A DNA stretch of 24,433 nucleotides from a bacterium (lineage in GTDB: Bacteria; Patescibacteriota; Patescibacteriia; Buchananbacterales; UBA6539): assembly GCA_023246815.1 (NCBI GenBank), contig JAHFHR010000001.1, positions 1-24,433 of the forward strand, in the 5' to 3' direction. Shown one piece after another: positions 129 to 23,034 of this stretch; position 1 is the first letter of the stretch; each line of letters opens with the position of its first letter. The notes beneath the pieces were generated by a model that was not told the DNA's origin, searched no databases, and saw nothing but the letters and a program-made list of their open reading frames with translations. Both the position numbers and the translations under genes were made by a program.

Positions 129-1619
129 ATGAGCCTCTTTCGTCAATTAACACCAGTCAAGATTGTGCTGCTGGCCGCAACGCTGGTGGGGGTATTTTTT
201 GTTGTGTACAGTCCACATTTTTCATACCCATTCCCCTTTCATATTGATGAGTGGCACCACATTGATCAGTCAATTTTGCTGGGGAGCTATGGTGATTACT
301 TTGATCGCTTACGCGTTGACCTTGAGGCGCGACCGAACAGTTTTGAAATCGGCTTTCATTTATTTTTACTACTACTGTCGCTTATTGTTAACGTCCCTAC
401 CACGCTGCAATTTATGCCCGGGCTGTGGGCGGTGTTGACGGCCAGCGTTCTTTTTTATACGACCTACAAATTAACTCGAGGTAATTTTTTGGCAGCGTGG
501 CTGGCAATCATTTTTTTTGCATCAATCAAATCAAACGTTAATCTAACGGGGCTGTGGTTTTTTACGCCCTTGACGTTTGCCGCACCATTTTTGTTTTTAT
601 ACATGTATTTATTCAGTGAGGGACTATTGCGTCAGGACAAGCGAATGGTGCTGGGGAGTCTTGCCATTATGGTATTTTTAATTCCGACCCATTCGGTCTC
701 ACTTTTGTTTGCGTTGCCGGCACTGACCATGTACGGTCTTTTTTATTGGAGATATATCCTTTCGGAATGGAAGTTTTTTTGGATTTTTTTGGTTATCCCA
801 GTAGCTGGTTTTATCTTTTTTAAGGATGCGCTTGGGCTTGCTTGGGGGGAAGCGTTTGTGCACTTTGCGCAAGGCATTCAGTTTCCCTATGGTTGGGGGG
901 TTTTAGAGTTAAATAATTCTTTATTCGAGGTGTACACCCTTGTTGGTGTTGTTTTTGCATTTGCCGGAGTTGTTTTGATTACCATGAAGCCAGAGCGGTG
1001 GCGATTTTTATTGTACCTATTATGGCCACTCAACGCTTTTATACTCATTGTGCTTTTTAGAGCAACTGGCATCTCATTTTTGGCCCCTTTCCAGCGCAAT
1101 CTATACTACTTGGCACTGGGGTTGCCAGTATTAAGTGGTGTGGGCGCCGCGCACCTTATCACTTTTACCAGTGAGCAGTTTAAGCGTTTTTTGTCATCAG
1201 CCAAGGATATTGAATATATAACCAAGGTGCTTACCGTTGGGGTGGTTATGGTAACCGTTCTTTTTTCATTTGTTTCTTACTACGAGGTTCCGGCCGGACT
1301 CGAGCTTTACCAACCGATTAATAAGGCAGACTACGCCGCGCTTCAATTTCTAGCTCAGCAACCACCAGGGCATGTTTTAGCATCACCGTTTGTATCAACG
1401 GCGGTGTTCTCGGTGTCAGGCATGCGTCCGCTAGCAACGGTTTTCTTTGATTCACAGTTTCGTGGCATCACGGAGCAATTTTTTGTTGTTGACTGTGAGC
1501 AAAAAAATGCATTGCTGCAGGGCGTTGAGGAGCGTCTGTATATTATTTCACAGCGAGCACTTACGTGTGGTTGGAATACTATTTATAATGATGATGATTA
1601 TATTTATCAAATAAATTAA
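129..1619 (+). CDS. Polytopic membrane protein, putative GT-C-fold (PMT/ArnT-like) glycosyltransferase
   Basis: 496 aa with many hydrophobic segments; acidic motif FHIDEWHH in the loop after TM1; soluble C-terminal tail; first gene of a GT operon. Confidence 0.6.
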   Translation: MSLFRQLTPVKIVLLAATLVGVFFVVYSPHFSYPFPFHIDEWHHIDQSILLGSYGDYFDRLRVDLEARPNSFEIGFHLFLLLLSLIVNVPTTLQFMPGLWAVLTASVLFYTTYKLTRGNFLAAWLAIIFFASIKSNVNLTGLWFFTPLTFAAPFLFLYMYLFSEGLLRQDKRMVLGSLAIMVFLIPTHSVSLLFALPALTMYGLFYWRYILSEWKFFWIFLVIPVAGFIFFKDALGLAWGEAFVHFAQGIQFPYGWGVLELNNSLFEVYTLVGVVFAFAGVVLITMKPERWRFLLYLLWPLNAFILIVLFRATGISFLAPFQRNLYYLALGLPVLSGVGAAHLITFTSEQFKRFLSSAKDIEYITKVLTVGVVMVTVLFSFVSYYEVPAGLELYQPINKADYAALQFLAQQPPGHVLASPFVSTAVFSVSGMRPLATVFFDSQFRGITEQFFVVDCEQKNALLQGVEERLYIISQRALTCGWNTIYNDDDYIYQIN

Positions 1620-1626
1620 TTCCGGC

Positions 1627-2328
1627 ATGTCTAAACAATATCCAGAAATTTCCATTATTTTACCCTGTCGTGATGAGGAGGCAGCTATTGGTTGGTGCTT
1701 AGAGCAGTTACGGCTGGTGATCACTTGCTATAATCTTTCAGCTGAAATTGTTGTCTCTGATTCTTCTTCTGATCGATCTCCCGAAATTGTCGCACAGTAT
1801 GCGGAGGTAAAATTAGTGAAACATAATCAGATTGGCTATGGCCGTGCCTATTTGGCAGGAGCGGCCGCGGCCACCGGGCAGTATTTATTTTTTGCCGATG
1901 CTGATGCCACCTATGATTTTCAGGAGATCCCTCGCTTTATTGCCGGGCTACGAGATGGGGAAGATTTTGTTATTGGTAATCGCTTTGCAGGGGCAATTGA
2001 ATCAGGCGCCATGCCCTGGCTACACCGATATTTGGGCAATCCGTTGTTGTCTGCCTTAACACGGTTCATTTTTAAACTATCAGTACGTGATGTACACTGC
2101 GGTATGCGCGCGCTTAAGCGTTCTGCCTTTGAAGCGATGCAATTAAAAACGTCGGGCATGGAGCTTGCCACTGAAATGGTGGTAAAAGCTAAAGTCCTTG
2201 GCCTCCGCGTTGCTCAACTGCCTATCAACTATCATTCGCGGCTCGGGACTTCAAAATTAAAGACTTTTTCTGACGGTTGGCGCCATTTGCGGTTTATGGC
2301 AAGCGCCATGAATATGAATGAGAAATGA
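1627..2328 (+). CDS. GT2 polyprenyl-phosphate glycosyltransferase (DPM1/ArnC-like)
   Basis: ISIILPCRDEE, VVSDSSSD, GYGRAY, FADADATY (DxD), DVHCGMRA, ELATEM, YHSRLGTSKL motifs. Confidence 0.85.
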   Translation: MSKQYPEISIILPCRDEEAAIGWCLEQLRLVITCYNLSAEIVVSDSSSDRSPEIVAQYAEVKLVKHNQIGYGRAYLAGAAAATGQYLFFADADATYDFQEIPRFIAGLRDGEDFVIGNRFAGAIESGAMPWLHRYLGNPLLSALTRFIFKLSVRDVHCGMRALKRSAFEAMQLKTSGMELATEMVVKAKVLGLRVAQLPINYHSRLGTSKLKTFSDGWRHLRFMASAMNMNEK

Positions 2329-3947
2329 GCATGTTACCACTACCGGTGCTCAGTCATCCCAAACGTTTAGCGTGGGGGCTATTGCTACTGAGCACTATTT
2401 TTTTGTTAGGGTATCAGTTACGCGCGTACCACGATATTCACTCTTTTTTACCGTATTCTCCCTACGAAGCTTACGATGCGCATACTCTTGAGCGCGGAGA
2501 CCGTTTTTTTAGCGACCACATTCCCCTCTATCCGACTAAGTTTTTGATTCGTTTGGTAACAGAAACTTTTTTTGGTTCACTGTATGTCCTCTATCTCGCT
2601 GGCTTTGTCGCGGTTTTCTTACTGGGGCGTTTTTTTTCAAAAAATGATCTTGGAGGCGTGCTCGCTGTTATGTTATATGCGATTGCCCCTGACAATCTAC
2701 TCCAGTATACTAAAACGGTTTTAGTAAATGATAGCGGTGTGTCGTATATTGCAGCACTTTTTGCAATTCTGTCGCTTGGGGCTTATCTACGATCAAGGCT
2801 TCGAGTATGGCTACTTTTATTTTTTCTCTGTGGTGTGATTGCGCTCACCTCATATCATACCGGAGCAGCGGCATTCGCAATAATCCTTCTTGCTTCGTTG
2901 GGATCTCTGGCGTTGAGTAGTATGTTAAGCATCAGCTCCGCGATCACTATTGGTGGATTACTACTTCTTTATAGCGTTTGGTTGATCTTTGTCGATCCCG
3001 AGCAGTTCGCGCTTTTTTATCAGACCGTGCGACCGGACATGTTAGCGTATGCGCTAGCTGGCTTGCTGGTAGCAGTTGGTGTACTTTTTTTATTTTCTCT
3101 TTCTAGATTCTCCAAACGACTTTACAGCCTCTCTGAGTGGTTGCCGCTACTTGCGGTAGTTAGCGGGGCGCTACTATTGCTAAGCGACACTGATATTTTT
3201 GGTAGACTACTAGGAGTGAGTTCAGATTCAGGTGGGCACTATTTGTCTTTGCTAACGCTCAACAGTGCTTTAGCACAGGCGCTGTTGGTCTGTTTGTATA
3301 GCAGTATGGTAGTGCCGTTTTTCTCTAAACGAATCTTAAACCTTGAGCAGACACTCTTGCGTGGCTGGATGGTCGGGGTAGTATTGGTTGGGGTAGCGCT
3401 TATTGCTGGCGGGTACATGAGTCGGATACCCGACTATCTATTTCCTATTTGTTATGTATTTTTTGCATGCTATTGGTCGGACCGCTTTAGATTCAGAAAA
3501 ATTGTAGTGATTGCCACTGTATTACTATTAGTTGTTGCGCAACTTCGTATCTTGGAAGATCCTTTTTCACAACGCCGTTTTTATACTTTGGCTGAAGTGG
3601 AATCTGCTCGTGCAGTTGCCGCTCGTAACCTAGCAGGACCAGTGATGTCTGACTTGCGTACCGCCGCGCTATTACGGTACGTTGGGATGTCCGACGTTCA
3701 ATTTTTTTCCGAAAATAGTACAGAGCACCACACATTGTTTTATGGGTACGATCAACTTTATCCTTCTGATGATACGTCGTACGTGATACTCACTCGTGCA
3801 ATGCGTGATGTCGTGTATGCCACTAATTTTCAAACGACACCACTTGATGCCAGCGTATATGCTTTTTATCGAGAACGATTTACCGAGGTATACAGTGATG
3901 GAATATTTTATGTCTACGAACTTTCCGTGCCTCCTAATCTGCAATAG
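2325..3947 (+). CDS. Polytopic membrane protein, possible GT-C-like glycosyltransferase
   Basis: 540 aa, largely hydrophobic; acidic loop YEAYDAH after TM1; soluble C-terminal domain; ATGA overlap with the GT2 gene. Confidence 0.5.
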   Translation: MSMLPLPVLSHPKRLAWGLLLLSTIFLLGYQLRAYHDIHSFLPYSPYEAYDAHTLERGDRFFSDHIPLYPTKFLIRLVTETFFGSLYVLYLAGFVAVFLLGRFFSKNDLGGVLAVMLYAIAPDNLLQYTKTVLVNDSGVSYIAALFAILSLGAYLRSRLRVWLLLFFLCGVIALTSYHTGAAAFAIILLASLGSLALSSMLSISSAITIGGLLLLYSVWLIFVDPEQFALFYQTVRPDMLAYALAGLLVAVGVLFLFSLSRFSKRLYSLSEWLPLLAVVSGALLLLSDTDIFGRLLGVSSDSGGHYLSLLTLNSALAQALLVCLYSSMVVPFFSKRILNLEQTLLRGWMVGVVLVGVALIAGGYMSRIPDYLFPICYVFFACYWSDRFRFRKIVVIATVLLLVVAQLRILEDPFSQRRFYTLAEVESARAVAARNLAGPVMSDLRTAALLRYVGMSDVQFFSENSTEHHTLFYGYDQLYPSDDTSYVILTRAMRDVVYATNFQTTPLDASVYAFYRERFTEVYSDGIFYVYELSVPPNLQ

Positions 3948-3949
3948 CC

Positions 3950-5881
3950 ATGTTTGTGCCTAAGTTATCATCGTTACTCCGAATCCCCAGCCAGTACACG
4001 GCGTGGCTACTCTTGTTGGTTGTGGCAGCGTATGTGCTTCGTATATTGCCCTATGCACTCGGGTATAACTTGCCTATCGCTCAAGAAGGAATGCGGGATT
4101 TTCAGCAGGTGCAGTACTTACTTGAGCATCACCAGATCAATGCGACAGCTAGCTACTTTGATTATGGTGCGTTCCCCGTGCTGCATATACTGGTTGCGGC
4201 TATTGCCTGGCTTGGGTTTGATCCGCTGCGGGTTTTTCTTTTTGTGCCCCAGCTGTTTCCCAGTATTGGATTAATTTTTTTCTATTTTTTTCTAAGTCGT
4301 TACTTTTCAAAAGCTCAAAGTCTCTGGGCAATTTTTTGTGTAGCAGTATTTATCCCCCACATCTATTGGACCGCGCAACCAGTGCGCGAAACAACGGGGT
4401 TATTTTTCTTTCCGCTCATTATCTATGGACTTGATCGTGTCCTGCAGCCCATTACTAGGCAGAAGCGCTGGGCATGGTGGCTATTTCTGGTGTCTTCACT
4501 TGGGTTGCTGGTTGTTACCCACCATTGGACAAGCGTAATGGTAGTCGCATGGATTTTTGCTTATAGTTTAGTCTGGGTTGATAAACCTCGGCCTGTTGCC
4601 ACGGGATTATTGCTTGGAACTGGATTTCTAAGTGTAACCTTGCTCTACTGGTTTTTCTTTTTTGAACGCGGCCTTGAACTATTATATTCTCTGCTGTCGC
4701 CCGTACCGCTTGTGCTACTACTCGGAGTATTGTTATCCATAATGCTCGGTCACACGGTGAGTACTGGTTCGGTCGCGCTACGCTGTATTAGTGCGTGCAG
4801 AACCCTTCCTGGAGCAATTATTGCTTCTGTTCTTGGGGGCTCCGCAGCAGTAGTGGTTGGATTTTTTTTACTACCAATTAACTATCCGCTACTAGTGTGG
4901 GGATTTTTTATTGTCCTAGCAGTGTTATTTTTTATCGGATTTTTTAAGAGATCAACTCTGCACACCGATCAATTATTGCTTCTGTCTACCGCCTACCTAT
5001 TAGTGTGGCCCGTGGTGATGCCGCTGGTGCTATTGGGCAATGATTTAAATACAGTTCCTTTTGATCCTTTTAGAACAGCTGAGTTTATTATTTATCCGTT
5101 AAGCCCATTAATTGCTGCTGGTATACTTTATGCACTGCGCACTAGTCGTTGGTTCGCCTACCTGGCCATCGTGCTACTAGGAGCGCTCTCCACTATGGCA
5201 TACCCAACTATCTATATTTTTAACACTAATTTTTATGGTACTCTGTTATATGATATTCGTAGTGACTTGCGATACATTTCCCCTGCTGTTCAGCAGCTGG
5301 TGTCTTTGGCCGCTGCGGACGGCAAGGCTGTGCGTACGCCTTTGTCAGAAATCGCCACCTACCAAGAAGCATTTTTTGGGGTCAAATCGAGCCAGTATAC
5401 TTTGGTGACCGCACAAGACCAGCGAGTAAAGAATCACGCCGCTTTGATTAATCACGAGATCGCTGGCGTTAGTATCAACGAATACTGGGAAGATTATCAG
5501 AGTATTTTTCCAGAACTCATTGTAGCTCGGCGCGGCGAGGATTTATTATTGCGAGATCCATTGCTTGATGCTGGGTTTATTTCACAAACCGCTGATCGAT
5601 TGCTGACCATTGGTGCTGTGCCAAGTGTCACCGTAGTATATGAAAATACGGGGACTGACCGGTGGCGAACTAATCGCGGTGATGAGCTAACTAGTAATCA
5701 TGGCTATAGTATCCCCTTGCCTTATGATGTTGTACCCGGAGCTCGTGTTACTTTTTTTGCTATACAGCCTCTTGTTGGCATCCTTGGTGTTTATGATGTT
5801 GTCTGGAGGATGCATCGCCCAGGCCTTGGATTTTTTGGTTCATCAAGCCCAACCACTACGGTTACCTTGATTAGAGAGTAG
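3950..5881 (+). CDS. Polytopic membrane protein, possible GT-C-like glycosyltransferase with C-terminal Ig-like domain
   Basis: 643 aa, many TM segments; acidic loop QEGMRD after TM1; C-terminus YENTGTDRW...LPYDVVPG...YDVVWRM...FFG resembles NBR1/FW Ig-like domains. Confidence 0.5.
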   Translation: MFVPKLSSLLRIPSQYTAWLLLLVVAAYVLRILPYALGYNLPIAQEGMRDFQQVQYLLEHHQINATASYFDYGAFPVLHILVAAIAWLGFDPLRVFLFVPQLFPSIGLIFFYFFLSRYFSKAQSLWAIFCVAVFIPHIYWTAQPVRETTGLFFFPLIIYGLDRVLQPITRQKRWAWWLFLVSSLGLLVVTHHWTSVMVVAWIFAYSLVWVDKPRPVATGLLLGTGFLSVTLLYWFFFFERGLELLYSLLSPVPLVLLLGVLLSIMLGHTVSTGSVALRCISACRTLPGAIIASVLGGSAAVVVGFFLLPINYPLLVWGFFIVLAVLFFIGFFKRSTLHTDQLLLLSTAYLLVWPVVMPLVLLGNDLNTVPFDPFRTAEFIIYPLSPLIAAGILYALRTSRWFAYLAIVLLGALSTMAYPTIYIFNTNFYGTLLYDIRSDLRYISPAVQQLVSLAAADGKAVRTPLSEIATYQEAFFGVKSSQYTLVTAQDQRVKNHAALINHEIAGVSINEYWEDYQSIFPELIVARRGEDLLLRDPLLDAGFISQTADRLLTIGAVPSVTVVYENTGTDRWRTNRGDELTSNHGYSIPLPYDVVPGARVTFFAIQPLVGILGVYDVVWRMHRPGLGFFGSSSPTTTVTLIRE

Positions 5882-5887
5882 ACTGTT

Positions 5888-6979
5888 ATGCGAGTTGCCA
5901 TTTTCCACAATTTTATGGACAATATCGGTGGTGCTGAGTATGTTGATTTAGTTCTTGCTCAAGCGCTCGGTGCTGATATTTATACCACTAACATCAACCA
6001 AGGGAAGATTGCTAAGCTTGGTTTTTCAACGGACAACATTTTTAGCATCGGTTCTGTGCCGGTCAATCAACCCCTGCGCAATGAAGCAGCGCATCAGCGA
6101 TTTAAGCGTCTGAATTTGGGCACTCGTTACGATGCCTATATTATTGCCGGTGATTGGGCAATGGCTGCTGCTATTCATAACAAGCCCAATCTTTGGTACA
6201 TTTATTCTCCGGCTCGTGAAATCTGGGATGCTCACGAATTTACTCGGCAGACATTGGTACCTGCGCCAGCTCGTCCTTTATTTACGGCTTGGGCAAAGCA
6301 TCATCGCAGACAAACGTTACAGAACCTGCAGCATATTAATCGTTTTGTTGCTATTTCTGAAAATGTTCGTTCTCGGGTGCAACGTTACTTGAGGCGTGAT
6401 GCTGTGGTGGTTCACCCACCGACGGACACTCAGCGTTTTAGGTATCAGGGAAATGGAGATTTTTGGTTGTCAGTTAATCGGCTATTCCATCATAAGCGCG
6501 TTGAGTTACAGCTTCAGGCGTTTTCGATGTTACCCCAGGAACAGCTGGTGATTGTTGGCTCATATGAGCGTTCACGTCATTTCCGTCGCTATGCTCAAGA
6601 GATGGAGCGGCTTAAGCCAGCCAACGTAACCTTATTGCACTGGGTTGATGCGCAGGCACTTGTTGATTTATATGCTCGTTGTCGGGGATTTTTAACCACT
6701 TCAATGGACGAAGACTATGGAATGGGGCCGGTTGAGGCAATGGCTGCAGGTAAACCGGTCATTGCTCCGAATGAAGGAGGGTACCGTGAAACCGTTATTG
6801 ATGGTCAAACTGGGGTGCTTATTGATGCTATCACCCCTGAAAAAATAGTAGCTGCGATAGGTGTGGTTGGTCCTCGTGCCGCTGAATATCAAATAGCCTG
6901 TCAAAAACGAGCCCAACAGTTTGATGTATCGATTTTCATTTCTAAAATGCAAGAACAGCTTAATGAGCTTATTAAATAA
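5888..6979 (+). CDS. GT4 (GT-B fold) glycosyltransferase
   Basis: N-terminal RVAIFH...GGAE; EDYGMGPVEAMAAGKPVIA (EX7E motif); GGYRETVIDG. Confidence 0.9.
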   Translation: MRVAIFHNFMDNIGGAEYVDLVLAQALGADIYTTNINQGKIAKLGFSTDNIFSIGSVPVNQPLRNEAAHQRFKRLNLGTRYDAYIIAGDWAMAAAIHNKPNLWYIYSPAREIWDAHEFTRQTLVPAPARPLFTAWAKHHRRQTLQNLQHINRFVAISENVRSRVQRYLRRDAVVVHPPTDTQRFRYQGNGDFWLSVNRLFHHKRVELQLQAFSMLPQEQLVIVGSYERSRHFRRYAQEMERLKPANVTLLHWVDAQALVDLYARCRGFLTTSMDEDYGMGPVEAMAAGKPVIAPNEGGYRETVIDGQTGVLIDAITPEKIVAAIGVVGPRAAEYQIACQKRAQQFDVSIFISKMQEQLNELIK

Positions 6980-7828
6980 ATGAAACCGACTGTTTCTGTT
7001 ATTATTCCCGTGTATAATGGCGCGGCAACGCTTCGTGCGTGCCTTGCATCCGTGTTAGCACAGGCGTACCCTAGTTTTGAAGTGATTGTGGTTGATAATA
7101 ATTCTACTGACACCACAGCTGATATTATTAAATCGTTTGGTGATCAGGTGCGCTCTGTGTTTTTAGCGAAAAGGGGTCGTGGTAATGCTCGCAATGCAGG
7201 CATTGCTGCCGCGCACGGCGACAGTATTGTTTTTACTGATTGTGACTGCATTGCCTCGTCCGACTGGCTGGCTTGTCTTGTCGCGCCGCTACTCAGTAGT
7301 AGCGCCAGTGCCGTGACCGGATTTCATGTTGCTGCTACTACTGACTATTGGGCACGACAGGTACAGCAACGCGATCAGATTTACTTTGATCGAGTCCGAA
7401 ATGGAGAATGGATTCATCATGTTGACACTAAAAATTTTGCTATCGATGGCACACTAATGCGTGCGATGTTATTTAATGAAAGTTTGCAGAATATGGAAGA
7501 CTACGATTTTTGCCTTCGGCTTACGACCGCTGGTGTGCCTATTTCATTTGCTCCTAACGCAGTAGTGGCCCACCACCACCGTTCATCATTGCGCGCAGTG
7601 ATAGCCACTAATCTTTCTCGCGGATACTGGATCGGGCGCGTACAGCGCATGCATCATTCTCGGCAGATAGTACCTCCTATGGGCGAGAGTTTTAGTCTGG
7701 GGAATGCAATTAGTTTTCCGATTTGGCTGGTAGGGCAGCTCGTTCGTCATCCCGCGCACTTCCCCTATCTCTTTATTTCTGAAATCAGTTGGCGACTCGG
7801 CAGTATTTGGCAATTTTTTAAGTTATGA
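6980..7828 (+). CDS. GT2 (GT-A fold) glycosyltransferase
   Basis: VSVIIPVYNG, VVDNNSTD, ARNAG, FTDCDC (DxD), EDYDF. Confidence 0.9.
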   Translation: MKPTVSVIIPVYNGAATLRACLASVLAQAYPSFEVIVVDNNSTDTTADIIKSFGDQVRSVFLAKRGRGNARNAGIAAAHGDSIVFTDCDCIASSDWLACLVAPLLSSSASAVTGFHVAATTDYWARQVQQRDQIYFDRVRNGEWIHHVDTKNFAIDGTLMRAMLFNESLQNMEDYDFCLRLTTAGVPISFAPNAVVAHHHRSSLRAVIATNLSRGYWIGRVQRMHHSRQIVPPMGESFSLGNAISFPIWLVGQLVRHPAHFPYLFISEISWRLGSIWQFFKL

Positions 7829-8865
7829 ACGATCATCGTAAAAATCTTTTAGTTACCTTGGCTGATCGGGCCTATCTGTCAGCTGCACAGCAGCTATTTG
7901 CGAGTGCCCACTTGCACGGCGGTTGGGATGGCGATTACATGTTGCTCACCCCAGAGGACGTTGATGATTCTGAGCTTGCGTGGTTTTACCGACAGGGGGT
8001 TGTTGTAAAAAAGTTGCCCATTCCTGTGCACTACGCTGGTGCGACTGGCTTTCCGTTAACTATTTATTTAATGCTGCATCTGTTTACGCCAATGGTTGCG
8101 GCGTGGGATCAGGTGGTGTTTATAGACGCAGACTGTATTGTTCGCGCCTCACTTGCTGAACTATCTCATGTACCTAGTTTTTCGGCAATTCGTGATGTGT
8201 TAAAAATGAAACTTGCTGATCAATTTCGCTGGTATTTTGTTCAAGTTTCTAGTGCCTCTCTTTACCAACTTTCTCCTGTCTCTCATCTTGAATACAAGAA
8301 TACCTATTCGCGGTTGAAACACGAGTACCCACTCCGCAGCCCTTCGTTTAATTTGGGAGTACTTGCGTTTCCAACATCAATTATTACCGACGAGCTACTA
8401 AGCAACTTACATCGTATCTACCAAACATACGGGGCCATCGGAGCTTTTGCAATTCAAGGCGATCTCAACCTTCTTTTTGCTGAGCGCTGGCACCACTTGC
8501 CTCCCGCATACAATGCCTTTGCTTATTATTGGATGAGCCACTACGGACTTTCTCGGGAGCGCGTTGACGGAGTGTTGCTCCATTTTGCTGGAGGGCCGAA
8601 GCCTTGGGAAACGAGCAATCCTTTTTATCCGGAATGGAAGGAAAATTTTGATGCTTCCGAGAATATTGATCTTCAAATATTTCGACCAGCAACCCGAATT
8701 TGGAATACGGAGGAGTTGGAAGAGCACCAGCTTTTTATGGATACTAAACATTTTGAATATACAGTTTGGTTTACGATCGATCGTAGTCTTGGTAACCTCG
8801 GTAAGGCAGTTCGTTGGTGCTCACCACGACTATATGACTTCATAAAACGACTGATTGTCGGATAG
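7825..8865 (+). CDS. GT8 family glycosyltransferase
   Basis: VFIDADCIV, FNLGV, QGDLNLLF, LPPAYN and LLHFAGGPKPW are characteristic GT8 motifs. Confidence 0.85.
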   Translation: MNDHRKNLLVTLADRAYLSAAQQLFASAHLHGGWDGDYMLLTPEDVDDSELAWFYRQGVVVKKLPIPVHYAGATGFPLTIYLMLHLFTPMVAAWDQVVFIDADCIVRASLAELSHVPSFSAIRDVLKMKLADQFRWYFVQVSSASLYQLSPVSHLEYKNTYSRLKHEYPLRSPSFNLGVLAFPTSIITDELLSNLHRIYQTYGAIGAFAIQGDLNLLFAERWHHLPPAYNAFAYYWMSHYGLSRERVDGVLLHFAGGPKPWETSNPFYPEWKENFDASENIDLQIFRPATRIWNTEELEEHQLFMDTKHFEYTVWFTIDRSLGNLGKAVRWCSPRLYDFIKRLIVG

Positions 8866-8883
8866 GCGGCAATGGTATATCAT
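8855..8883 (+). promoter_or_regulatory. Possible internal sigma70 promoter for the acpS-ACP-ligase-acyltransferase module
   Basis: TTGTCG(8855-8860), 17 bp, TATCAT(8878-8883), at the largest intergenic gap of the operon. Confidence 0.4.
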
Positions 8884-8906
8884 AAGGTAGTAATTTGTTT
8901 ACTTGT

Positions 8907-9269
8907 ATGAACACCGCTACCATTGGGCTAGGCGTTGATCTTGAAGAAAATAAACGTTTTTTAGGGTTGGATCGCGTTGCTGATCGGCCATTTTTAGAAA
9001 AAATTTTTACCCCACAAGAGCTGGACTACTGTTTCAGTAGGCCGCTACCGGCACAACATTTATGCGCTTGTTTTGTCGGCAAAGAAGCAGTCATTAAAGC
9101 TCTGGGTAGTTGCGGTCAGACTATCAGCAGCTACCACGATATTGAAATTGGCCATGCGTCTGACGGCGCACCGGTTGTTACCCTTGCTCATCATCCAACA
9201 GCACACGTTACCATTAGTCTTTCGCACAGTGCCCAACAATCAGTAGCATTTGTGCTTCTGTATTGGTGA
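8907..9269 (+). CDS. acpS: Holo-ACP synthase (4'-phosphopantetheinyl transferase, AcpS type)
   Basis: IGLGVD, IFTPQE, KEAVIKA and ISLSHS motifs; ATG at 8907 preferred over TTG at 8895. Confidence 0.85.
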   Translation: MNTATIGLGVDLEENKRFLGLDRVADRPFLEKIFTPQELDYCFSRPLPAQHLCACFVGKEAVIKALGSCGQTISSYHDIEIGHASDGAPVVTLAHHPTAHVTISLSHSAQQSVAFVLLYW

Positions 9270-9517
9270 ATATGAATATACAACAACAAGTCATCGCCAT
9301 CTTTTGTGACTCAGTTGAACATTCAGTGGATCGAGATACGCTGGATCTTACTATGCCGCTAAAAAATATGCCCTACATTGATTCCCTAACGCTTCTGAAG
9401 TTTGTTTCAGCCATTGAGGCTAGGTACAAAGTTTCAGTGGCGATGAATGAGGTTGATCAAGTTTTTCGCAGTATCGGTAGTGTTGTTGCCTACATTGAAG
9501 CTCATCACTCTACATGA
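9266..9517 (+). CDS. Acyl carrier protein
   Basis: ~83 aa with IDSL (phosphopantetheine Ser) followed by LLKFVSAIEARY; GTGA overlap with the acpS stop (alternative ATG at 9272). Confidence 0.85.
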   Translation: MNMNIQQQVIAIFCDSVEHSVDRDTLDLTMPLKNMPYIDSLTLLKFVSAIEARYKVSVAMNEVDQVFRSIGSVVAYIEAHHST

Positions 9518-11013
9518 CCTCTGTTGATCCAAAAGAGCTACTGATTGCCATGGTTACGCGGCAACCGGACGTGCCAGTGCTGATTGCCGGTGATCACATC
9601 GTGACCCATCGGCAGTTTTTAACGCTGGTTGAACACGCTGAGGCTAAACTTGATCAACTTGGCGTGACTCCGGGCAGCACTGTTGGTGTGGTTTTGCCCA
9701 ATAGTCTTGAGCTGCTCGTGCTCACTCATGCGATACTATGGCGCAAGGCCATTGTGTTTCCTATTGCACCGACGGTTACGCCAGCTGAACTTACTCAGCT
9801 TGTTGGTCCGACCACGCTTGCATTGTGCATTGTCCCACCTTTTTTATCGTCGCTTACTGCCACATCCTTTGCGGCGAAAGTTGTCCAGGTTACTACTGAT
9901 TATGCCTCATTAGACTTGATTGTGGTGACATCCGACAGCACGCTTGTTCCAAGTTTGGTCGCACCATTCTCTGCAGGTAATCCCTATGTTGTTCGCCTTG
10001 TCTCTTCTGGCACCTCGGGCGCCTATAAACAGGTACTGCATACCGCCGCAGCCCTGTTTGCTATGGGCGCCAACCTTACGACCGCATACCACTATCGGAT
10101 TGGCGCGGAGCGCGCGATGATGCTGGTGCCACCGAGTCATCTTATTGGTTTTGGCTATTTAATGTCGCCTATTTATTTCGGTTGGACTAACATTATTACC
10201 AATGGCTTTGTTCCACAACAGTTTATTGCCGAACTGCAGCACCATCGCGCCACCCTACTGTTTGCCACGCCATTTATTTTTGAAACCCTTGCCAAAGTCG
10301 CTCCTGCTGATCTTGATTTGTCGCACTTACAAAAGGCGGTATCTAGCGGTGGGCCTTTGTCTGAGGCCGTGTATCGCAGCTTTACCAGTCGGTGCCGAGC
10401 GTCGCTACACATAATGTATGGCTCCACTGAAGCAACAATTGTGACCGCCCGAATTGATGATGGAAATTATTCTGGAACAGATGTTGGTAAGCCGGTTGCT
10501 GACATGATTGTTAAAGTTTTTGATGATCAAAAGAATGAATTACCAACTGGATCAGTTGGTAATGTCGCCGTATCCGGCCCTACGGTTATTAGCGGGTATT
10601 TCAACAATGACCGGGCCAACGTAGAATTGTTTGTTAATAATTTTTTACTAATGGGCGATCGTGGATTTCTTGATGCTACTGGCAATCTGCATATTGTCGG
10701 TAGAACAAATTTGGTAATCAGCGTCGGCGGACTCAAGGTTGATATTATGGAAGTTGAGGCCGTACTTGCCGGGCACCCTAGCGTTGCCGAAGCACTGGTG
10801 TATGGCGTGTCACAGGCCAGTACTGAAGTGGTCAAAGCTGCGGTCGTATGTACTGATACGACCTTGACTACTGAAGCCCTCATGCAACACTGCCGCGACC
10901 ATTTGTCTGACTACAAAGTTCCCAAAGAGATTATTTTTGTGCCCCAGCTCCCCCGCAGCGCTACTGGCAAAGTAGTGCGCGGCGATGTCGCGGCCTTATT
11001 GAGTAAAAAATAA
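9514..11013 (+). CDS. Class I adenylate-forming enzyme (acyl-CoA / acyl-ACP synthetase-like)
   Basis: SSGTSG..K P-loop, PPSHLIG, YGSTE, GDRG, GR, EVE and PRSATGK motifs. Confidence 0.9.
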   Translation: MTSVDPKELLIAMVTRQPDVPVLIAGDHIVTHRQFLTLVEHAEAKLDQLGVTPGSTVGVVLPNSLELLVLTHAILWRKAIVFPIAPTVTPAELTQLVGPTTLALCIVPPFLSSLTATSFAAKVVQVTTDYASLDLIVVTSDSTLVPSLVAPFSAGNPYVVRLVSSGTSGAYKQVLHTAAALFAMGANLTTAYHYRIGAERAMMLVPPSHLIGFGYLMSPIYFGWTNIITNGFVPQQFIAELQHHRATLLFATPFIFETLAKVAPADLDLSHLQKAVSSGGPLSEAVYRSFTSRCRASLHIMYGSTEATIVTARIDDGNYSGTDVGKPVADMIVKVFDDQKNELPTGSVGNVAVSGPTVISGYFNNDRANVELFVNNFLLMGDRGFLDATGNLHIVGRTNLVISVGGLKVDIMEVEAVLAGHPSVAEALVYGVSQASTEVVKAAVVCTDTTLTTEALMQHCRDHLSDYKVPKEIIFVPQLPRSATGKVVRGDVAALLSKK

Positions 11014-11819
11014 TGTCCATCCCAACTCCTAAGCGCGTAGCCGTTGTTATTTATTCACTAGTACGTCAGCGCGCGCGAGCACTACCCGCAGCTATAGTCT
11101 CTCTTGCATGGGTGTTACCGCGACTGCCCTATCTTCTGCGCTCTATTCATGCTATTAAAAACGCGGTTCGTCCAGCTGAATCAACGATTCGGTTTTTTTT
11201 TCAGATGCGGCGCTTTCAGAATTTGTATGCTCGTTCAGACTATATCCAAAATTTTCGTAGTAAAAATATTGTTTCTGACGAAGCTGCTGCCGCGCAGTCC
11301 AGCACGCGACCGATTATTTATTTAAGCTGGCATCACGGCGCCGGACGCATTGAAGAGCTCTCGCGGCGCGCTGACCCCCAAGCCTATATTTTTAGCGCTT
11401 ACAGCTTTACAACGCCTCGCACGCTGCCGGCTGATCATCAAGCGCTGGTGAAGATGTCCAAGATACTCGCTGCTGGTGGACGTCTGGTTATTACCTTTGA
11501 CGGGCAGTTTGGCCAGCTTGATCTGGAGAATAGTATTTTTGGGGTGCCGCAAAATTTATCTAGCTCCTTTTTATATCTGATTAAACTCCACAATCCAGTG
11601 TGCATTCCAATGACGTTTTACGCGCATGATACTGGCGAGGTTGATATTTTTTACGGCCCTGATTTGAATGCTTCCGGCGCACTTACTCGCCGTGAGTATA
11701 GCGATGGGCTGCAGCATGTCTTGGAATATTTTACCCAAGATTTTTTAGCACACGGCTCGTATCAGATTGATTATCGTTTTTTACTTTATCCCGAACGAAT
11801 TAAACTATTGCCGTGGTAA
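11013..11819 (+). CDS. LPLAT-fold acyltransferase, LpxL/HtrB- or PatA-like (divergent)
   Basis: IIYLSWHHG, LAAGGRLVITFDG, IFGVP and PVCIP blocks correspond by eye to LpxL-like blocks; TAATG coupling to the ligase; catalytic HX4D/E spacing is not canonical. Confidence 0.55.
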   Translation: MSIPTPKRVAVVIYSLVRQRARALPAAIVSLAWVLPRLPYLLRSIHAIKNAVRPAESTIRFFFQMRRFQNLYARSDYIQNFRSKNIVSDEAAAAQSSTRPIIYLSWHHGAGRIEELSRRADPQAYIFSAYSFTTPRTLPADHQALVKMSKILAAGGRLVITFDGQFGQLDLENSIFGVPQNLSSSFLYLIKLHNPVCIPMTFYAHDTGEVDIFYGPDLNASGALTRREYSDGLQHVLEYFTQDFLAHGSYQIDYRFLLYPERIKLLPW

Positions 11820-11840
11820 TTTTTATCACGGCGGTAGTAT

Positions 11841-11879
11841 CAAAACTCCTCCCGGAACATCTTTTAGGGAGGAGTTTTG
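11841..11879. terminator. Bidirectional terminator between convergent operons
   Basis: Perfect 13-bp stem CAAAACTCCTCCC(11841-11853)/GGGAGGAGTTTTG(11867-11879), with T-runs at the stem base on both strands. Confidence 0.8.
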
Positions 11880-11886
11880 TACTGTT

Positions 11887-11940
11887 TTGTCGACTATGTT
11901 GTTGGCGTGGTTGTCGACTATGTTGTTGGCGTGGTTGTCG
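11887..11940. repeat. 24-bp tandem repeat (2.25 copies) spanning the giant gene's stop codon
   Basis: TTGTCGACTATGTTGTTGGCGTGG at 11887-11910 and 11911-11934, plus partial TTGTCG at 11935-11940. Confidence 0.95.
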
Positions 11941-19031: not shown

Positions 19032-20762
19032 ATGTATATTTTAGGAATTTCTTGCTATTACCACGACGCAGCGGCAACGTTACTGAAAGATGGCGTGGTG
19101 ATAGCGGCTGCCGAAGAAGAGCGCTTCACGCGCAAAAAGCACGATAACGCTTTCCCGCTCAATGCCATTCGGTTTTGTTTAGCGCGTGAGGGCATTACTG
19201 CAAAAGATCTAGCGTTTATTGGATTTTACGAAAAACCGTTAGTAAAATTTGAGCGCCTGTTGTTCTCCTGTCTAGAAACTTTCCCTCAAAGTTTTATAGC
19301 ATTTATTTCGGCTTTGCCATCGTGGCTCACTGAAAAATTGCGGATTCAAAAAACGATTCGCAAAAAATTAAAATATAAAGGCGATATTATTTTTATTCCG
19401 CACCATCTGGCGCACGCCGCTCAGTTTTTGGTCAGTCCATTTGAACGCGCTGCGGTGGTGACTGTTGATGGCGTAGGGGAGTGGACCACGACTGCCTGGG
19501 GCATTGGTGTTGGAACAAACATCAGCTTGAAAAAAGAAATTCGTTTTCCGCATTCGCTTGGGTTATTGTATTCAACCATCACTGCCTATCTTGGTTTTTC
19601 AGTAAATGACGCGGAGTATAAAGTAATGGGCCTGTCAGCCTATGGTAACACTGATCCCGCCACTAATGAGTATTACCAAAAATTGCGACGGCTGATTGAC
19701 GTGAAGTCAGATGGCAGTTTTCGGTTAGATATGAGCTACTTTAGCTATCATTATACTGATCGAATGCCATCAAAAAAATTGCAGCAACTGTTGGGTGGTT
19801 CGACGCGCTTGCAGGATACAGAGATTACCAAGCGCCATCAAGATATTGCTGCTGCAGTCCAACTACTCTATGAAGATATATTTTTTAAAATATTGCAACA
19901 CGTTCAAAAAAGCACTGGTGAAGAAAATCTGGTGTTGTCGGGTGGCACCATTCAGAACAGTGTTGCTAATGGTAAAGTGTTTCAGCAGACTCAATTTAAA
20001 AATGTTTGGGTCTCTTCCAATGTGACCGATGGTGGCACCAGTTTGGGTGTTGCCAGTTATATTTATCATTCAGTATTAAACAACCCACGTCAGCAGGCAC
20101 TTGCTACAGCGTTCCTTGGTCCTGCTTTTTCATCTGACGCGGTCCAGCTATTTTTAGACAACCATCATATTAGCTACACTACATTCCAAGATCGTCAACA
20201 GCTGATTGACGCTGCCGTTACGTTACTACTTGATAATCAGGTCGTTGGCTGGTTTCAGGGTGCGATGGAGTTTGGTCCGCGGGCGCTGGGGGCACGTAGT
20301 ATTTTAGCTAATCCTACTAACCCTGCGATGCAAGAAGTTTTAAATAAAAAAGTAAAGCACCGAGAAGCATTTCGTCCGTTTGCGCCGGTGGTATGTACCG
20401 AAGACGCCGCGACCTATTTTGATGTTCCAATGCCGTTACCCGCGGCCGCAGATTTTATGACGATGGTGTTTCCGGTGCGTTCAGAGTGGCGCCAGCGGTT
20501 ACCCGCGATTACCCATGTTGACGGTAGTGCGCGCGTCCAAACATTGCAGCGTCAGCACCAGCCGCTGCTGTATGACGTGATCAAGGCATTTGGCGTGGCG
20601 TCTGGGGTACCAGTACTGATCAACACTTCCTTTAACGTGCGCGGTGAGCCGATTGTCTGTACTCCGGAGGATGCATATCGCTGTCTGATGGGAACCGAGA
20701 TTGATTTTTTGGTGATGGAAAATTTTTTAATAAAACGAAGTGATAACCTCCTTCATAGCTAA
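19032..20762 (+). CDS. O-carbamoyltransferase (NodU/CmcH/TobZ family)
   Basis: HDAAA, AEEERFTRKKH, HHLAHA, DGVGE, EYKVMGLSAYG, EFGPRALGARS, REAFRPFAP, HVDGSARVQT and NTSFN motifs. Confidence 0.95.
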   Translation: MYILGISCYYHDAAATLLKDGVVIAAAEEERFTRKKHDNAFPLNAIRFCLAREGITAKDLAFIGFYEKPLVKFERLLFSCLETFPQSFIAFISALPSWLTEKLRIQKTIRKKLKYKGDIIFIPHHLAHAAQFLVSPFERAAVVTVDGVGEWTTTAWGIGVGTNISLKKEIRFPHSLGLLYSTITAYLGFSVNDAEYKVMGLSAYGNTDPATNEYYQKLRRLIDVKSDGSFRLDMSYFSYHYTDRMPSKKLQQLLGGSTRLQDTEITKRHQDIAAAVQLLYEDIFFKILQHVQKSTGEENLVLSGGTIQNSVANGKVFQQTQFKNVWVSSNVTDGGTSLGVASYIYHSVLNNPRQQALATAFLGPAFSSDAVQLFLDNHHISYTTFQDRQQLIDAAVTLLLDNQVVGWFQGAMEFGPRALGARSILANPTNPAMQEVLNKKVKHREAFRPFAPVVCTEDAATYFDVPMPLPAAADFMTMVFPVRSEWRQRLPAITHVDGSARVQTLQRQHQPLLYDVIKAFGVASGVPVLINTSFNVRGEPIVCTPEDAYRCLMGTEIDFLVMENFLIKRSDNLLHS

Positions 20763-20765
20763 GAT

Positions 20766-21980
20766 ATGCGGCTACGGAACGATCTTATTTTTGTAATAAT
20801 AGGCGTTGGATTAATGCTTGCGGCATTTACTTTAAATCCGTGGATACTAGAGTATTTTTTTTCTCCTGATCGGCACCTTGATTTTATCTGGAAATACGTA
20901 TTGATCCTTTGTCTAGACAGCCTTTTGTTTATTTTTGGTTGCCTCGTGGTCTTGCCAAGACCACGGCTTTTCTTAAGCTCCTATCGGTATAAATTTTTGA
21001 CATTATGTGTTGCTCTCTTATGTGCTTTTTTAATTGCCGAGGTACTAGTAAGGATCTTGGATACACAGACTGATCTCACTATTTCTGACAACACACTTGG
21101 CACTATTCCAAACCCTGGGCTACGTCCGGAGTCGCTTGGTTTTCAAGAAACCGAACTTAACTTTGCCAATCTTGCGCAGGACAATCTTGTGTACGCTATT
21201 GGTGATTCATTTGCTTATGGATACGTAGATTACGATGACAATTATCTTACCATTGTTGATGAAAATTTTCCCGAGTATAATGTTGTTAATCTAGGAGTTT
21301 GGGGGCATCAACCTTGGCAGTATTTTGAGATGATTAAACGTTATTCAGAAATTAGAAAACCAAAGTACATCTTACTCAATTTTTTTGTTGGTAACGATTT
21401 TTATGACGTAGAGAATGTTGATTTTTATCTTCGGCAACGCCCTTATTTGTCACCACTCTTTACACTGAGTGAATTTTCGAAACTTATATCCGAGGCTAAT
21501 CAGTTTTTAGTCGCCACTATTTTGAACGAAGATTTTTTTCTACATGTTAACAGGTTGTACTTTGAAGTGAGTCGCAAGCAGTCGCTGTCACCATGGCAAC
21601 AATCTACTGACGCTTCTTTACAATCAATTGATGATATCATTACGTACACTAGTACTCGCGATATTAAATTGGTAGTTTTAATTTTGCCTTCAGAGCCACA
21701 GGTTGACATAACGTTGCGCGAAACTATGCTTAAGCGATTTTCTCTAGAGTCTCAGGATTTTGATATTGCACGACCTCAACGTATCTTAACGGAGCATCTT
21801 GCTTCTGAGGGCATTCCTTTTATTGACTTATTGCCATCATTTCAAGAGGCTGGTAAAACCGAGAGGCTCTACTTACCTAGAAATACCCACTGGAATCCGG
21901 CGGGTAATGCGTTGGCCGCTGACGTAATTACTCAACAGCTTAGGGATACTAATTTTTTCACCAATAATGTTTCGGAATAA
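20766..21980 (+). CDS. Membrane-anchored SGNH/GDSL hydrolase-family protein (AlgX/AlgJ-like)
   Basis: N-terminal TM segments; IGDSF, NLGVWG, GND and NTHWN blocks. Confidence 0.75.
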   Translation: MRLRNDLIFVIIGVGLMLAAFTLNPWILEYFFSPDRHLDFIWKYVLILCLDSLLFIFGCLVVLPRPRLFLSSYRYKFLTLCVALLCAFLIAEVLVRILDTQTDLTISDNTLGTIPNPGLRPESLGFQETELNFANLAQDNLVYAIGDSFAYGYVDYDDNYLTIVDENFPEYNVVNLGVWGHQPWQYFEMIKRYSEIRKPKYILLNFFVGNDFYDVENVDFYLRQRPYLSPLFTLSEFSKLISEANQFLVATILNEDFFLHVNRLYFEVSRKQSLSPWQQSTDASLQSIDDIITYTSTRDIKLVVLILPSEPQVDITLRETMLKRFSLESQDFDIARPQRILTEHLASEGIPFIDLLPSFQEAGKTERLYLPRNTHWNPAGNALAADVITQQLRDTNFFTNNVSE

Positions 21981-23034
21981 AAAAGTTTATATTTTTATCG
22001 GCGTATTGATTAGTTTTTTGGTATTTTTTTTCTGTTTAGTTGGGCTTGAAATACTATTACGGACTTGGCCGACGATGCTGCTGGGAAATAATTTTACAAA
22101 TGAAATACGATCAAAGTATCATGGGGGCGATGACGGTATCTATTGGTATGATTCAGCGTTGCGGATTAAAAGAATGAAACCTCACTATGAAACAACTATG
22201 TATTTTAATGAGTATGAATGGCATCACACAACTAATGCGGATGGTTTTAGAATCGCTGATGATCGTACTGATGCCGATATTGTGCTACTTGGTGATTCAC
22301 TTATTTATGGTCATGGACTCGATGACGATGAGTCCATCGGCTATCTTCTTGATGCGCAGTCACAATTAACTTCTGCGAATTTGGCACTTCAAGGTAATGG
22401 TTCGTTTGACAATTTTGTTATTTTTAATGCTTTTACCTTTAATTATCACCCGAAGTATATTTTTTATTTCTTTTTTGGTAATGATCTGACGGATTTTAGG
22501 GGACACCAAGATGTTGATGTTACCCTTAGAGAGTTAAACGATTTCGTTGCTACTCCTTTGGATGAATTTGATTTTTCGAATCTTCAGCCAAGTCCATATG
22601 TTGAACACACTGACGAATCTCGGCCACTGGCGATTGAAGTCGCAGTTAGATTTTTTGTTCACCGCGCCCTTGAGTTTTTAGGTGTGGAAGCGCCACTTGA
22701 TGGATATACTGATTTCGAGGACGAATTACTATGGGAGTATACGGAGAAAGTATTGCAGTACATGAAGTACAAAGCTGATGCCATTGATGCGGAGTTTGTA
22801 CTAGTGCCAGCGACCACATTTTATCAGTACACCAATGTTAATGATGAACAATATGAAAGACTTCATACCATTGCCGATGATTATGACATTTCTTTTATTG
22901 ATTCTCGGTCAATTGGTCGTGATTCAAAAAATTTTCTCCATCAACACTATGATGGACACTACAGTGAAGACGGTGCTCAAGTAATAGTGGATCTACTCTT
23001 GCAATTTATCGCAGATCACCCCGATGGTGTATAA
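21967..23034 (+). CDS. Membrane-anchored SGNH/GDSL hydrolase-family protein
   Basis: N-terminal TM; LGDSL, NLALQG, GND and DGHY blocks. Confidence 0.8.
   Translation: MFRNKKVYIFIGVLISFLVFFFCLVGLEILLRTWPTMLLGNNFTNEIRSKYHGGDDGIYWYDSALRIKRMKPHYETTMYFNEYEWHHTTNADGFRIADDRTDADIVLLGDSLIYGHGLDDDESIGYLLDAQSQLTSANLALQGNGSFDNFVIFNAFTFNYHPKYIFYFFFGNDLTDFRGHQDVDVTLRELNDFVATPLDEFDFSNLQPSPYVEHTDESRPLAIEVAVRFFVHRALEFLGVEAPLDGYTDFEDELLWEYTEKVLQYMKYKADAIDAEFVLVPATTFYQYTNVNDEQYERLHTIADDYDISFIDSRSIGRDSKNFLHQHYDGHYSEDGAQVIVDLLLQFIADHPDGV

Follow-up and report, generated by a model that had tools for sequence, protein, structure and literature searches.

Introduction

PatA of Mycobacterium acylates PIM2, one of the phosphatidylinositol mannosides (PIM), LpxL and LpxM acylate lipid A, and in rhizobia LpxXL works with a dedicated acyl carrier protein (ACP), AcpXL. 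To our knowledge, every characterized member of this LpxL/LpxM/PatA fold transfers fatty acyl chains of C10-C18 or longer. PatA and LpxM have chain-length rulers, and in PatA His126 is the general base and Glu200 its partner (PMC8519569). A second theme is known from Escherichia coli, Vibrio harveyi and Chlamydia, where Aas, AasS and AasC load exogenous fatty acids on ACP, bypassing fatty-acid synthesis (FAS) (PMC13014828). The Candidate Phyla Radiation (CPR, or Patescibacteria) has been stated to lack lipid synthesis, and no enzymes making or needing ACP were recognized in the CPR genomes that were examined (PMC7242380). Here we describe a four-gene module, with the order AcpS-ACP-ligase-acyltransferase, on contig JAHFHR010000001.1 of assembly GCA_023246815.1; the whole 24,433-bp stretch was analyzed and is called the window below.

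Our preferred reading, which we hold with modest confidence, is that this module loads a scavenged acid, probably a fatty acid, on its own ACP and then acylates a membrane glycolipid or a lipid-linked glycan.

A translationally coupled module at the end of an operon

Eleven co-directional genes occupy the plus strand of the window from 129 to 11819, and the module is made of the last four:

8907-9269, plus strand: AcpS-type 4'-phosphopantetheinyl transferase (PPTase), 120 aa from the ATG, with an alternative TTG start at 8895
9272-9517, plus strand: stand-alone ACP, 81 aa, with the serine of the DSL motif at Ser38 (codon 9383-9385)
9514-11013, plus strand: class I adenylate-forming (ANL) ligase, 499 aa (PF00501, E 3.4e-52; PF13193, E 2.8e-19)
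11013-11819, plus strand: divergent LpxL/LpxM/PatA-fold acyltransferase, 268 aa, assigned at the profile and fold level

The earlier note on this DNA had described a complete system of PPTase, DSL-type ACP, ligase and transferase, and all four genes were indeed recovered at these positions, with matches to PF01648, PF00550, PF00501 and PF13193. The AcpS is a single-domain protein (PF01648, E 4.5e-16, 59.3 bits against a cut-off of 25) that also passes TIGR00556 (50.9 against a cut-off of 45.35). Its GVDLEE (GxDxEE) and KEAVIKA (KEAxxKA) blocks are common to the AcpS proteins of the four cassettes considered here, that of the window and the three recurrences described below, and we take GxD and KEA to be the acidic Mg-binding residues. 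The ACP is acidic (pI 5.1) and matches PF00550 (E 1.6e-7, 31.9 bits against a cut-off of 20.8); an (I/L)DSL motif is present in all cassette ACPs.

The four genes are translationally coupled. AcpS and ACP lie 2 bases apart, ACP and ligase share an ATGA overlap, and ligase and acyltransferase a TAATG overlap. No fab, ketoacyl synthase (KS) or condensation family was matched among the window's open reading frames (ORFs) of at least 100 aa, in agreement with what the earlier note had seen. A nonribosomal peptide or polyketide synthase reading of the module was rejected, there being no KS, acyltransferase (AT) or condensation (C) domain.

The fourth gene encodes a predicted, very divergent LpxL/PatA-type acyltransferase

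The product of the fourth gene gave no direct Pfam or NCBIfam match, and PF03279 (Lip_A_acyltrans) was not matched even at E 10. Besides the protein itself, a word-based homologue search returned a single variant, 89% identical. Exhaustive searching with HMMER yielded 20 relatives with up to 35% identity, and seven of the 19 aligned homologues did match PF03279 (best E 9.8e-9). When the family profile was compared with three canonical Lip_A_acyltrans proteins, the match reached 95.7% probability (E 9.3e-9, 174 columns). A reduced alignment run against metagenome contigs gave one weak partial match.

An AlphaFold2 model built from the homologue alignment had a pLDDT of 85 and a pTM of 0.81. In a Foldseek search of the PDB the only significant matches were LpxM of Acinetobacter baumannii (E 5.6e-11) and PatA of Mycobacterium smegmatis (about 1e-6), and the top matches among Swiss-Prot models were LpxP, LpxL, PatA, LpxM and VexE, with PlsC/AGPAT models weaker. 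The structural match spans the whole catalytic core. His107 (codon 11331-11333), in a WHH block, aligns with the catalytic His of the family; this column holds His in 18, that is all but one, of the aligned homologues that cover it, and it is invariant in the closer set. Asp163 (codon 11499-11501), in an FDG block, is nearly invariant and aligns with PatA Glu200. A PatA-type catalytic arrangement of His107 and Asp163 is plausible from these alignments. The protein is basic (pI 9.6) and has a long N-terminal helix with a hydrophobic stretch, features that in the model fit a peripheral membrane association like that of PatA and LpxM.

Judged by profile and predicted fold, the enzyme is a very divergent LpxL/PatA branch that escapes Pfam detection. 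The LpxL/PatA-like transferase of the earlier note was upheld at that level, while a direct Pfam or NCBIfam match failed to back it.

The ligase belongs to a clade linked to acyltransferase genes

The core motifs of ANL enzymes are present in the ligase: SSGTSGAYK at 164, YGSTE at 302, GR at 396 and a TGK close to the C-terminus. The substrate-pocket motif reads PPSHLIGFG, and its His presumably sits where amino-acid-activating domains carry the Asp that binds the alpha-amino group. A Dlt-like reading was rejected, as there is no MBOAT and the substrate motif of the ligase has His rather than Asp. Attempts to derive the substrate from the nearest solved structures or families allowed no assignment, and a complex prediction for ligase and ACP (score 0.00) gave no verdict and is evidence neither way.

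A maximum-likelihood tree was built for 43 ligases. It united those of the four cassettes in one clade (support 100/99), which grouped (94/83) with ligases whose genes immediately precede canonical Lip_A_acyltrans genes in bacteria with large genomes. No AcpS gene was found within the fetched flanks of these large-genome loci. Because of this grouping, the ligase-acyltransferase pair looks, on the tree, like an old unit, and the cassette has a carrier and a primer for it in addition.

In L009/L010 and L133, genes for a class I/II aminotransferase, a zinc alcohol dehydrogenase, a ligase and a canonical Lip_A_acyltrans follow each other in conserved order, and the nearest 5-6 kb or so contain no ACP gene. 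In a large-genome bacterium, one locus (L007/L008, 4251-12374) combines an ACP, a tandem pair of ligases and a Lip_A_acyltrans-like gene with neighboring glycosyltransferases and a sulfation set of PAPS-reductase-like, CysN/CysC-like and sulfotransferase genes, and is a candidate cluster for a sulfated acyl-glycolipid.

The cassette is conserved next to GT8 genes and rare

The gene that precedes the module in the window recurs with it:

7825..8865, plus strand: glycosyltransferase of family 8 (GT8; PF01501, E 1.1e-10), the conserved cassette partner

The order AcpS-ACP-ligase-acyltransferase was found again in three further metagenome lineages (L095/L096, L097 and L098/L099), and one or several GT8 genes adjoin each recurring cassette, within glycan clusters. 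The GT8 homologues that flank the cassettes of L095, L097 and L098 are 26-27% identical to that of the window (E 1e-23 to 1e-41). A fourth relative of the acyltransferase has an ACP gene directly upstream. Across the cassettes, identity to the window proteins is 40-48% for AcpS, 33-36% for ACP, 32-38% for the ligase, 26-27% for GT8 and 23-25% for the acyltransferase. That the order is kept at such low identities indicates that it survived deep divergence, and its presence in independent, divergent loci makes the cassette more than a chance adjacency. The link to glycan synthesis is likewise conserved, since GT8 genes flank every full cassette seen.

The earlier note had proposed looking for the module in other CPR genomes. 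A general role in CPR was not supported. The cassette acyltransferase family was found in none of 400 genomes drawn evenly from the phylum, none of 400 from the class and none of 19 from the same family. Not found in about 900 related genomes searched, the cassette is a rare accessory element and not a general CPR membrane lipid route. The sole other match to the acyltransferase profile, a weak one among 100 relatives (G454), was set aside as a stand-alone canonical Lip_A_acyltrans without a cassette.

The host appears to lack fatty acid and phospholipid synthesis

The window is an entire contig (labeled C17) from the assembly of a groundwater bacterium, which comprises 743 kb in 94 contigs with 45% G+C and is estimated to be 88% complete with 2% contamination. 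The G+C of C17 is close to the genome mean, and the TrmD encoded on it has its nearest relatives among Patescibacteria proteins from metagenome-assembled genomes (MAGs), at 56-64% identity. Genomes sampled from the same class and phylum measure 0.6-1.4 Mb. On its size and the relatives of its TrmD, the host looks like a Patescibacteria/CPR genome, as the earlier note had supposed.

Its lack of FAS genes, seen by that note in the window, extended to the rest of the 88%-complete assembly, where no FAS II family was found: searches for ketoacyl synthase, FabD and FabA/FabZ (PF00109, PF00698 and PF07977) were all negative. Profile searches found no PlsC-type acyltransferase, PlsY or DegV/FakB either, and CdsA, CDP-alcohol phosphatidyltransferase and CoaE were also not found. 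Each of these searches gave matches in most control genomes. From this inventory the host appears unable to make fatty acids or phospholipids, and with CoaE not found, free CoA is probably scarce. The sole ACP, PPTase and AMP-binding genes of the genome are those of the module and of a diverged second copy on contig C76, so that the AcpS described here is one of only two PPTase genes and the ACP one of only two carrier proteins. No other ACP-using enzymes were found in the genome.

Contig C76 (3841 bp) is collinear with positions 5939-9773 of the window at 77.8% nucleotide identity and carries GT4, GT2, GT8, AcpS, ACP and the 5' part only of the ligase. Protein identity between the two copies is a mosaic (GT4 92%, AcpS 87%, GT8 68%, ligase N-terminus 55%), with the ligase and GT8 diverging fastest. 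Two groundwater metagenome runs contain the C17 stretch, and one of them also contains a variant of the acyltransferase gene that is about 10% different, which indicates that related strains coexist there. For this reason C76 may be a co-binned strain rather than a paralogue.

If the contig had been mis-binned from an ordinary bacterium with its own fatty-acid synthesis, the FAS-less context would be an artefact. A bin of 94 contigs with 2% estimated contamination leaves room for such an error, and, given the C76 copy, the bin must contain two or more related strains or copies. We nevertheless regard mis-binning as highly improbable, because the TrmD of C17 is closest to Patescibacteria MAGs, its G+C is near the 45% mean, and an AcpS inside the cassette is what one would expect of hosts without a housekeeping AcpS.

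In another explanation the module would serve an Aas-like salvage, re-acylating scavenged lysophospholipids or membrane lipids, and its position in a glycan operon would be incidental. The acyltransferase does fall within the wider lysophospholipid acyltransferase superfamily, matching PlsC/AGPAT models at weaker scores; no other acyltransferase was found in the genome; and AcpS with ligase-ACP-PlsC fusions exists in the same phylum. CPR-rich size fractions are reported to be enriched in lysolipids, and CPR are thought to get their lipids from the community (PMC7242380). This explanation is nonetheless quite unlikely. Every full copy of the cassette has GT8 neighbors and belongs to a glycan cluster, the two glycolipid acyltransferases lead the structural matches with scores far above PlsC types, and the cassette was not found in the related genomes, which need membranes equally.

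Proposed mechanism and its weighing

In the mechanism that we favor, AcpS would move 4'-phosphopantetheine from acquired (imported) CoA to Ser38 of the dedicated ACP. The ligase would adenylate an external free carboxylic acid, most likely a fatty acid of medium or long chain, and would thioesterify the activated acid to holo-ACP rather than to free CoA. The acyltransferase, with His107 as general base and Asp163 assisting, would then acylate a sugar hydroxyl with acyl-ACP as donor. As acceptor, a glycolipid or lipid-linked glycan would be supplied at the cytoplasmic face by the neighboring GT8 and other glycosyltransferases, and the product would probably be a lipid-anchored or extra-acylated surface glycoconjugate. 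We infer all of these steps from what was observed, namely the protein identities, the fold, the aligned residues, the coupling, the conservation and the lipid-gene negatives. A fatty acid is favored because members of this fold transfer fatty acyl chains and because the ligase has His, not Asp, in its pocket.

The salvage-and-graft idea of the earlier note is retained in the parts that concern a CPR host, the absence of detected FAS, the fold and the GT8-conserved glycan link; a promoter of the module's own (see below) and a general role in CPR were not supported.

Several observations weigh against our reading. Against the NCBIfam equivalogs the ligase scored below every cut-off, the best being NF004837 with 241 bits against a required 476, and its top matches of solved structure are oxalate-CoA, malonyl-CoA and various fatty or aryl CoA ligases, which score much alike. 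In glycan loci, further AcpS-ligase-ACP cassettes are accompanied by enzymes that point to small, non-fatty acyl groups. The acyltransferase has no acid at +5 from His107 or His108 and thus no LpxL/LpxM HX4(D/E) motif. No operon transcripts were detected in a single metatranscriptome from the same sample, a negative that does not show the operon to be silent since its contigs are of low depth. At 88% completeness, the failure to find lipid genes is strong but not conclusive. Finally, the donor of PatA is acyl-CoA, not acyl-ACP (PMC8519569).

In an alternative reading, the same carrier route would handle an acid that is not fatty, be it short, hydroxy, dicarboxylic or aryl, and would make a small acyl decoration of a surface glycan comparable to O-acyl or D-alanyl groups. 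Oxalate-CoA ligase and malonyl-CoA synthetase are among the best solved relatives of the ligase, and the window also has carbamoyl-transfer and SGNH/AlgX-like glycan-modifying genes. An AcpS that is 45% identical to that of the window stands in a polysaccharide locus (L130) with an HMGL-like enzyme, a cyclase, an ACP and an N-acetyltransferase-like protein; this cassette, however, has no gene of the acyltransferase family and is thus a different system. The structural match covers the whole catalytic core of the window's acyltransferase, and characterized members of its fold are generally known for the long chains cited in the Introduction, for which rulers have been described (PMC8519569). 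We therefore consider a non-fatty acid unlikely, if the most serious of the alternatives.

The donor used by PatA leads to a further possibility: that the ligase is an ordinary acyl-CoA synthetase, that the acyltransferase uses acyl-CoA, as PatA does (PMC8519569), and that ACP and AcpS serve another step. The ligase scores best against acyl-CoA ligase families, and the ligase and Lip_A_acyltrans pairs of L009 and L133 have no ACP gene nearby. In every copy of the cassette, on the other hand, AcpS and ACP are kept and translationally coupled to the ligase, the genome offers no other ACP-using enzyme that we could find, and CoA would be in short supply if CoaE is missing. This makes a CoA-dependent module very improbable.

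Returning to acyl-ACP transfer to a glycolipid, we propose that the cassette carries its own PPTase because its host is without a housekeeping AcpS, and that owning a PPTase would make it portable between genomes that lack fatty-acid synthesis. A wider proposal, which is possible but which we hold more loosely, is that the cassette would be a portable, self-priming kit spreading among FAS-less bacteria, fixing a surface glycan in the membrane, or tuning its anchoring, with fatty acids drawn from another organism that serves as host. Because the kit would work on a pantetheine arm bound to protein, a cell that cannot make CoA would need one salvaged CoA per carrier, and the acyltransferase would be the first of a new LpxL/PatA branch linked to GT8.

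Genes and signals around the module

The remaining features of the operon and its borders are as follows:

129..7828, plus strand: upstream operon genes, context outside the four-gene module, with Pfam matches as given below
first operon gene, plus strand: 496-aa protein, no family match
1627-2328, plus strand: GT2 (Pfam match)
between the GT2 at 1627-2328 and the PMT_2-like gene, plus strand: 540-aa protein, no family match
3950-5881, plus strand: PMT_2-like GT-C candidate, below threshold (Pfam score 23.1 against a gathering score of 26.1)
5888-6979, plus strand: GT4 (Pfam match)
6980-7828, plus strand: GT2 (Pfam match)
8855..8883, plus strand: weak sigma-70-like hexamer pair, TTGTCG-17-TATCAT, nine of 12 consensus positions
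11829..11892, no strand assigned: strong hairpin between the acyltransferase gene and a converging gene for a 1835-aa surface protein

The hexamer pair had been put forward in the earlier note as a possible promoter of the module's own. The region holds three promoter-like sites against 5.3 +/- 2.0 in shuffled sequence, that is, fewer, and a separate promoter was rejected as such sites are not above chance. At the other end, the RNA fold of 11815-11895 has an energy of -32.9 kcal/mol (z -5.7), and none of 200 shuffles was as stable. The hairpin at 11829-11892, with a 13-pair core, a 13-nt loop and further pairs extending it, is likely a bidirectional terminator that ends the operon; a simple terminator scan missed it because of the 13-nt loop.

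Farther along the plus strand (19032-23034), a carbamoyltransferase gene is followed by genes for an AlgX/SGNH-like protein and a GDSL-like protein, candidate genes for O-modification of a glycan.

Other AcpS systems in the phylum and in metagenomes

PPTase genes were present in 18 of the 400 other phylum genomes sampled. In five of the 400 (loci L123-L127, in genomes G179, G030, G063, G337 and G162) an AcpS gene is directly followed by one for a single protein in which AMP-binding, PP-binding and PlsC-type acyltransferase domains are combined within 821-855 aa, and a sixth copy, in G272, is probably split across contig ends. The ligase domains of these tri-domain fusions form a separate clade with 100/100 support. 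Stand-alone AMP-binding proteins of about 585 aa, 38-43% identical to the ligase core of the fusions, occur in all ten genomes sampled from one family of the phylum (f24), and AcpS was detected in none of these ten.

Another Patescibacteria locus (L121, G053:C1, 5965-11600) has in a row AcpS, an ANL ligase, an iron-type alcohol dehydrogenase, a LuxE-like acyl-protein synthetase and a LuxC-like acyl-CoA reductase, which suggests the reduction of fatty acids to aldehydes or alcohols. In metagenome contigs L130/L131 (10001-15403), the AcpS mentioned above, 45% identical to that of the window, starts a different cassette in a polysaccharide locus, composed of an HMGL-like enzyme, a ligase, a 253-aa protein, a cyclase, an ACP and an Antibiotic_NAT-like protein. 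The acyl group that this cassette provides is probably small and unusual. In L130, the 253-aa gene that follows the ligase had been a candidate acyltransferase homologue and was rejected, not being a homologue.

Comparison with known systems

The module gives a Patescibacteria genome an ACP system whose sole visible use is to bring an externally supplied acid to an acyltransferase of the glycolipid (LpxL/PatA) fold. Made of four small soluble or peripheral proteins, it offers a handle on the use of scavenged fatty acids and on lipid-anchored surface glycans, which probably matter for host attachment. Its acyltransferase also stands for a family that goes undetected by Pfam. The rarity of the cassette limits the reach of these findings.

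PatA is a described enzyme whose catalytic His and remote acidic partner (Glu200) both align with residues of the acyltransferase (His107 and Asp163), and the sugar that PatA acylates belongs to a glycolipid at the cytoplasmic face of the membrane. The operon also resembles the mycobacterial scheme for PIM, lipomannan (LM) and lipoarabinomannan (LAM) in joining a GT4, a PatA-like acyltransferase, a small GT2 of the polyprenyl-phosphate type and a PMT_2/GT-C-like protein, a likeness that is a lead and not a test. The two enzymes differ in that identity in structural alignments is 8-9% and the protein described here has no direct Pfam match. Moreover, PatA takes palmitoyl-CoA from the cell's own metabolism, whereas the cassette has a dedicated PPTase, ACP and ligase in a genome without detected FAS.

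With LpxL, LpxM, LpxP and rhizobial LpxXL the proposed route shares the acyl-ACP donor, and with LpxXL also the dedicated ACP. Unlike LpxL and LpxM, the cassette enzyme is without HX4D/E, and the window shows no evident lipid A pathway. The acyl chain of AcpXL is built by dedicated Fab enzymes, in place of which the cassette has a ligase.

The Dlt system (DltA, DltC, DltB and DltD) likewise has an ANL ligase that loads a dedicated carrier for the modification of a cell-surface polymer. The module departs from it in the His, not Asp, of its ligase, in the absence of MBOAT or DltD families among the ORFs next to it, and in a transfer that would be cytoplasmic and carried out by an LpxL-fold enzyme.

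The logic proposed for the cassette resembles that of Aas, AasS and AasC, in which an ANL ligase loads a free fatty acid on ACP for direct use by an acyltransferase. Aas, however, uses the housekeeping ACP, a PlsC-type domain and lysophosphatidylethanolamine, while the cassette has a dedicated ACP and PPTase, an LpxL/PatA-type acyltransferase and a glycan context. The AcpS and AMP-ligase/ACP/PlsC fusions of Patescibacteria follow the same sequence of primer, ligase, carrier and acyltransferase in the same phylum, but in a single chain of about 840 aa whose acyltransferase is of the PlsC type, with no glycan context and a ligase of a separate clade. Compared with these fusions, the cassette is the same logic in separate proteins, with a different acyltransferase family and a glycan context. 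Taken with the systems above, it is a new glycan-linked variant of the acyl-ACP-synthetase salvage theme, built around an undescribed branch of the LpxL/PatA fold.

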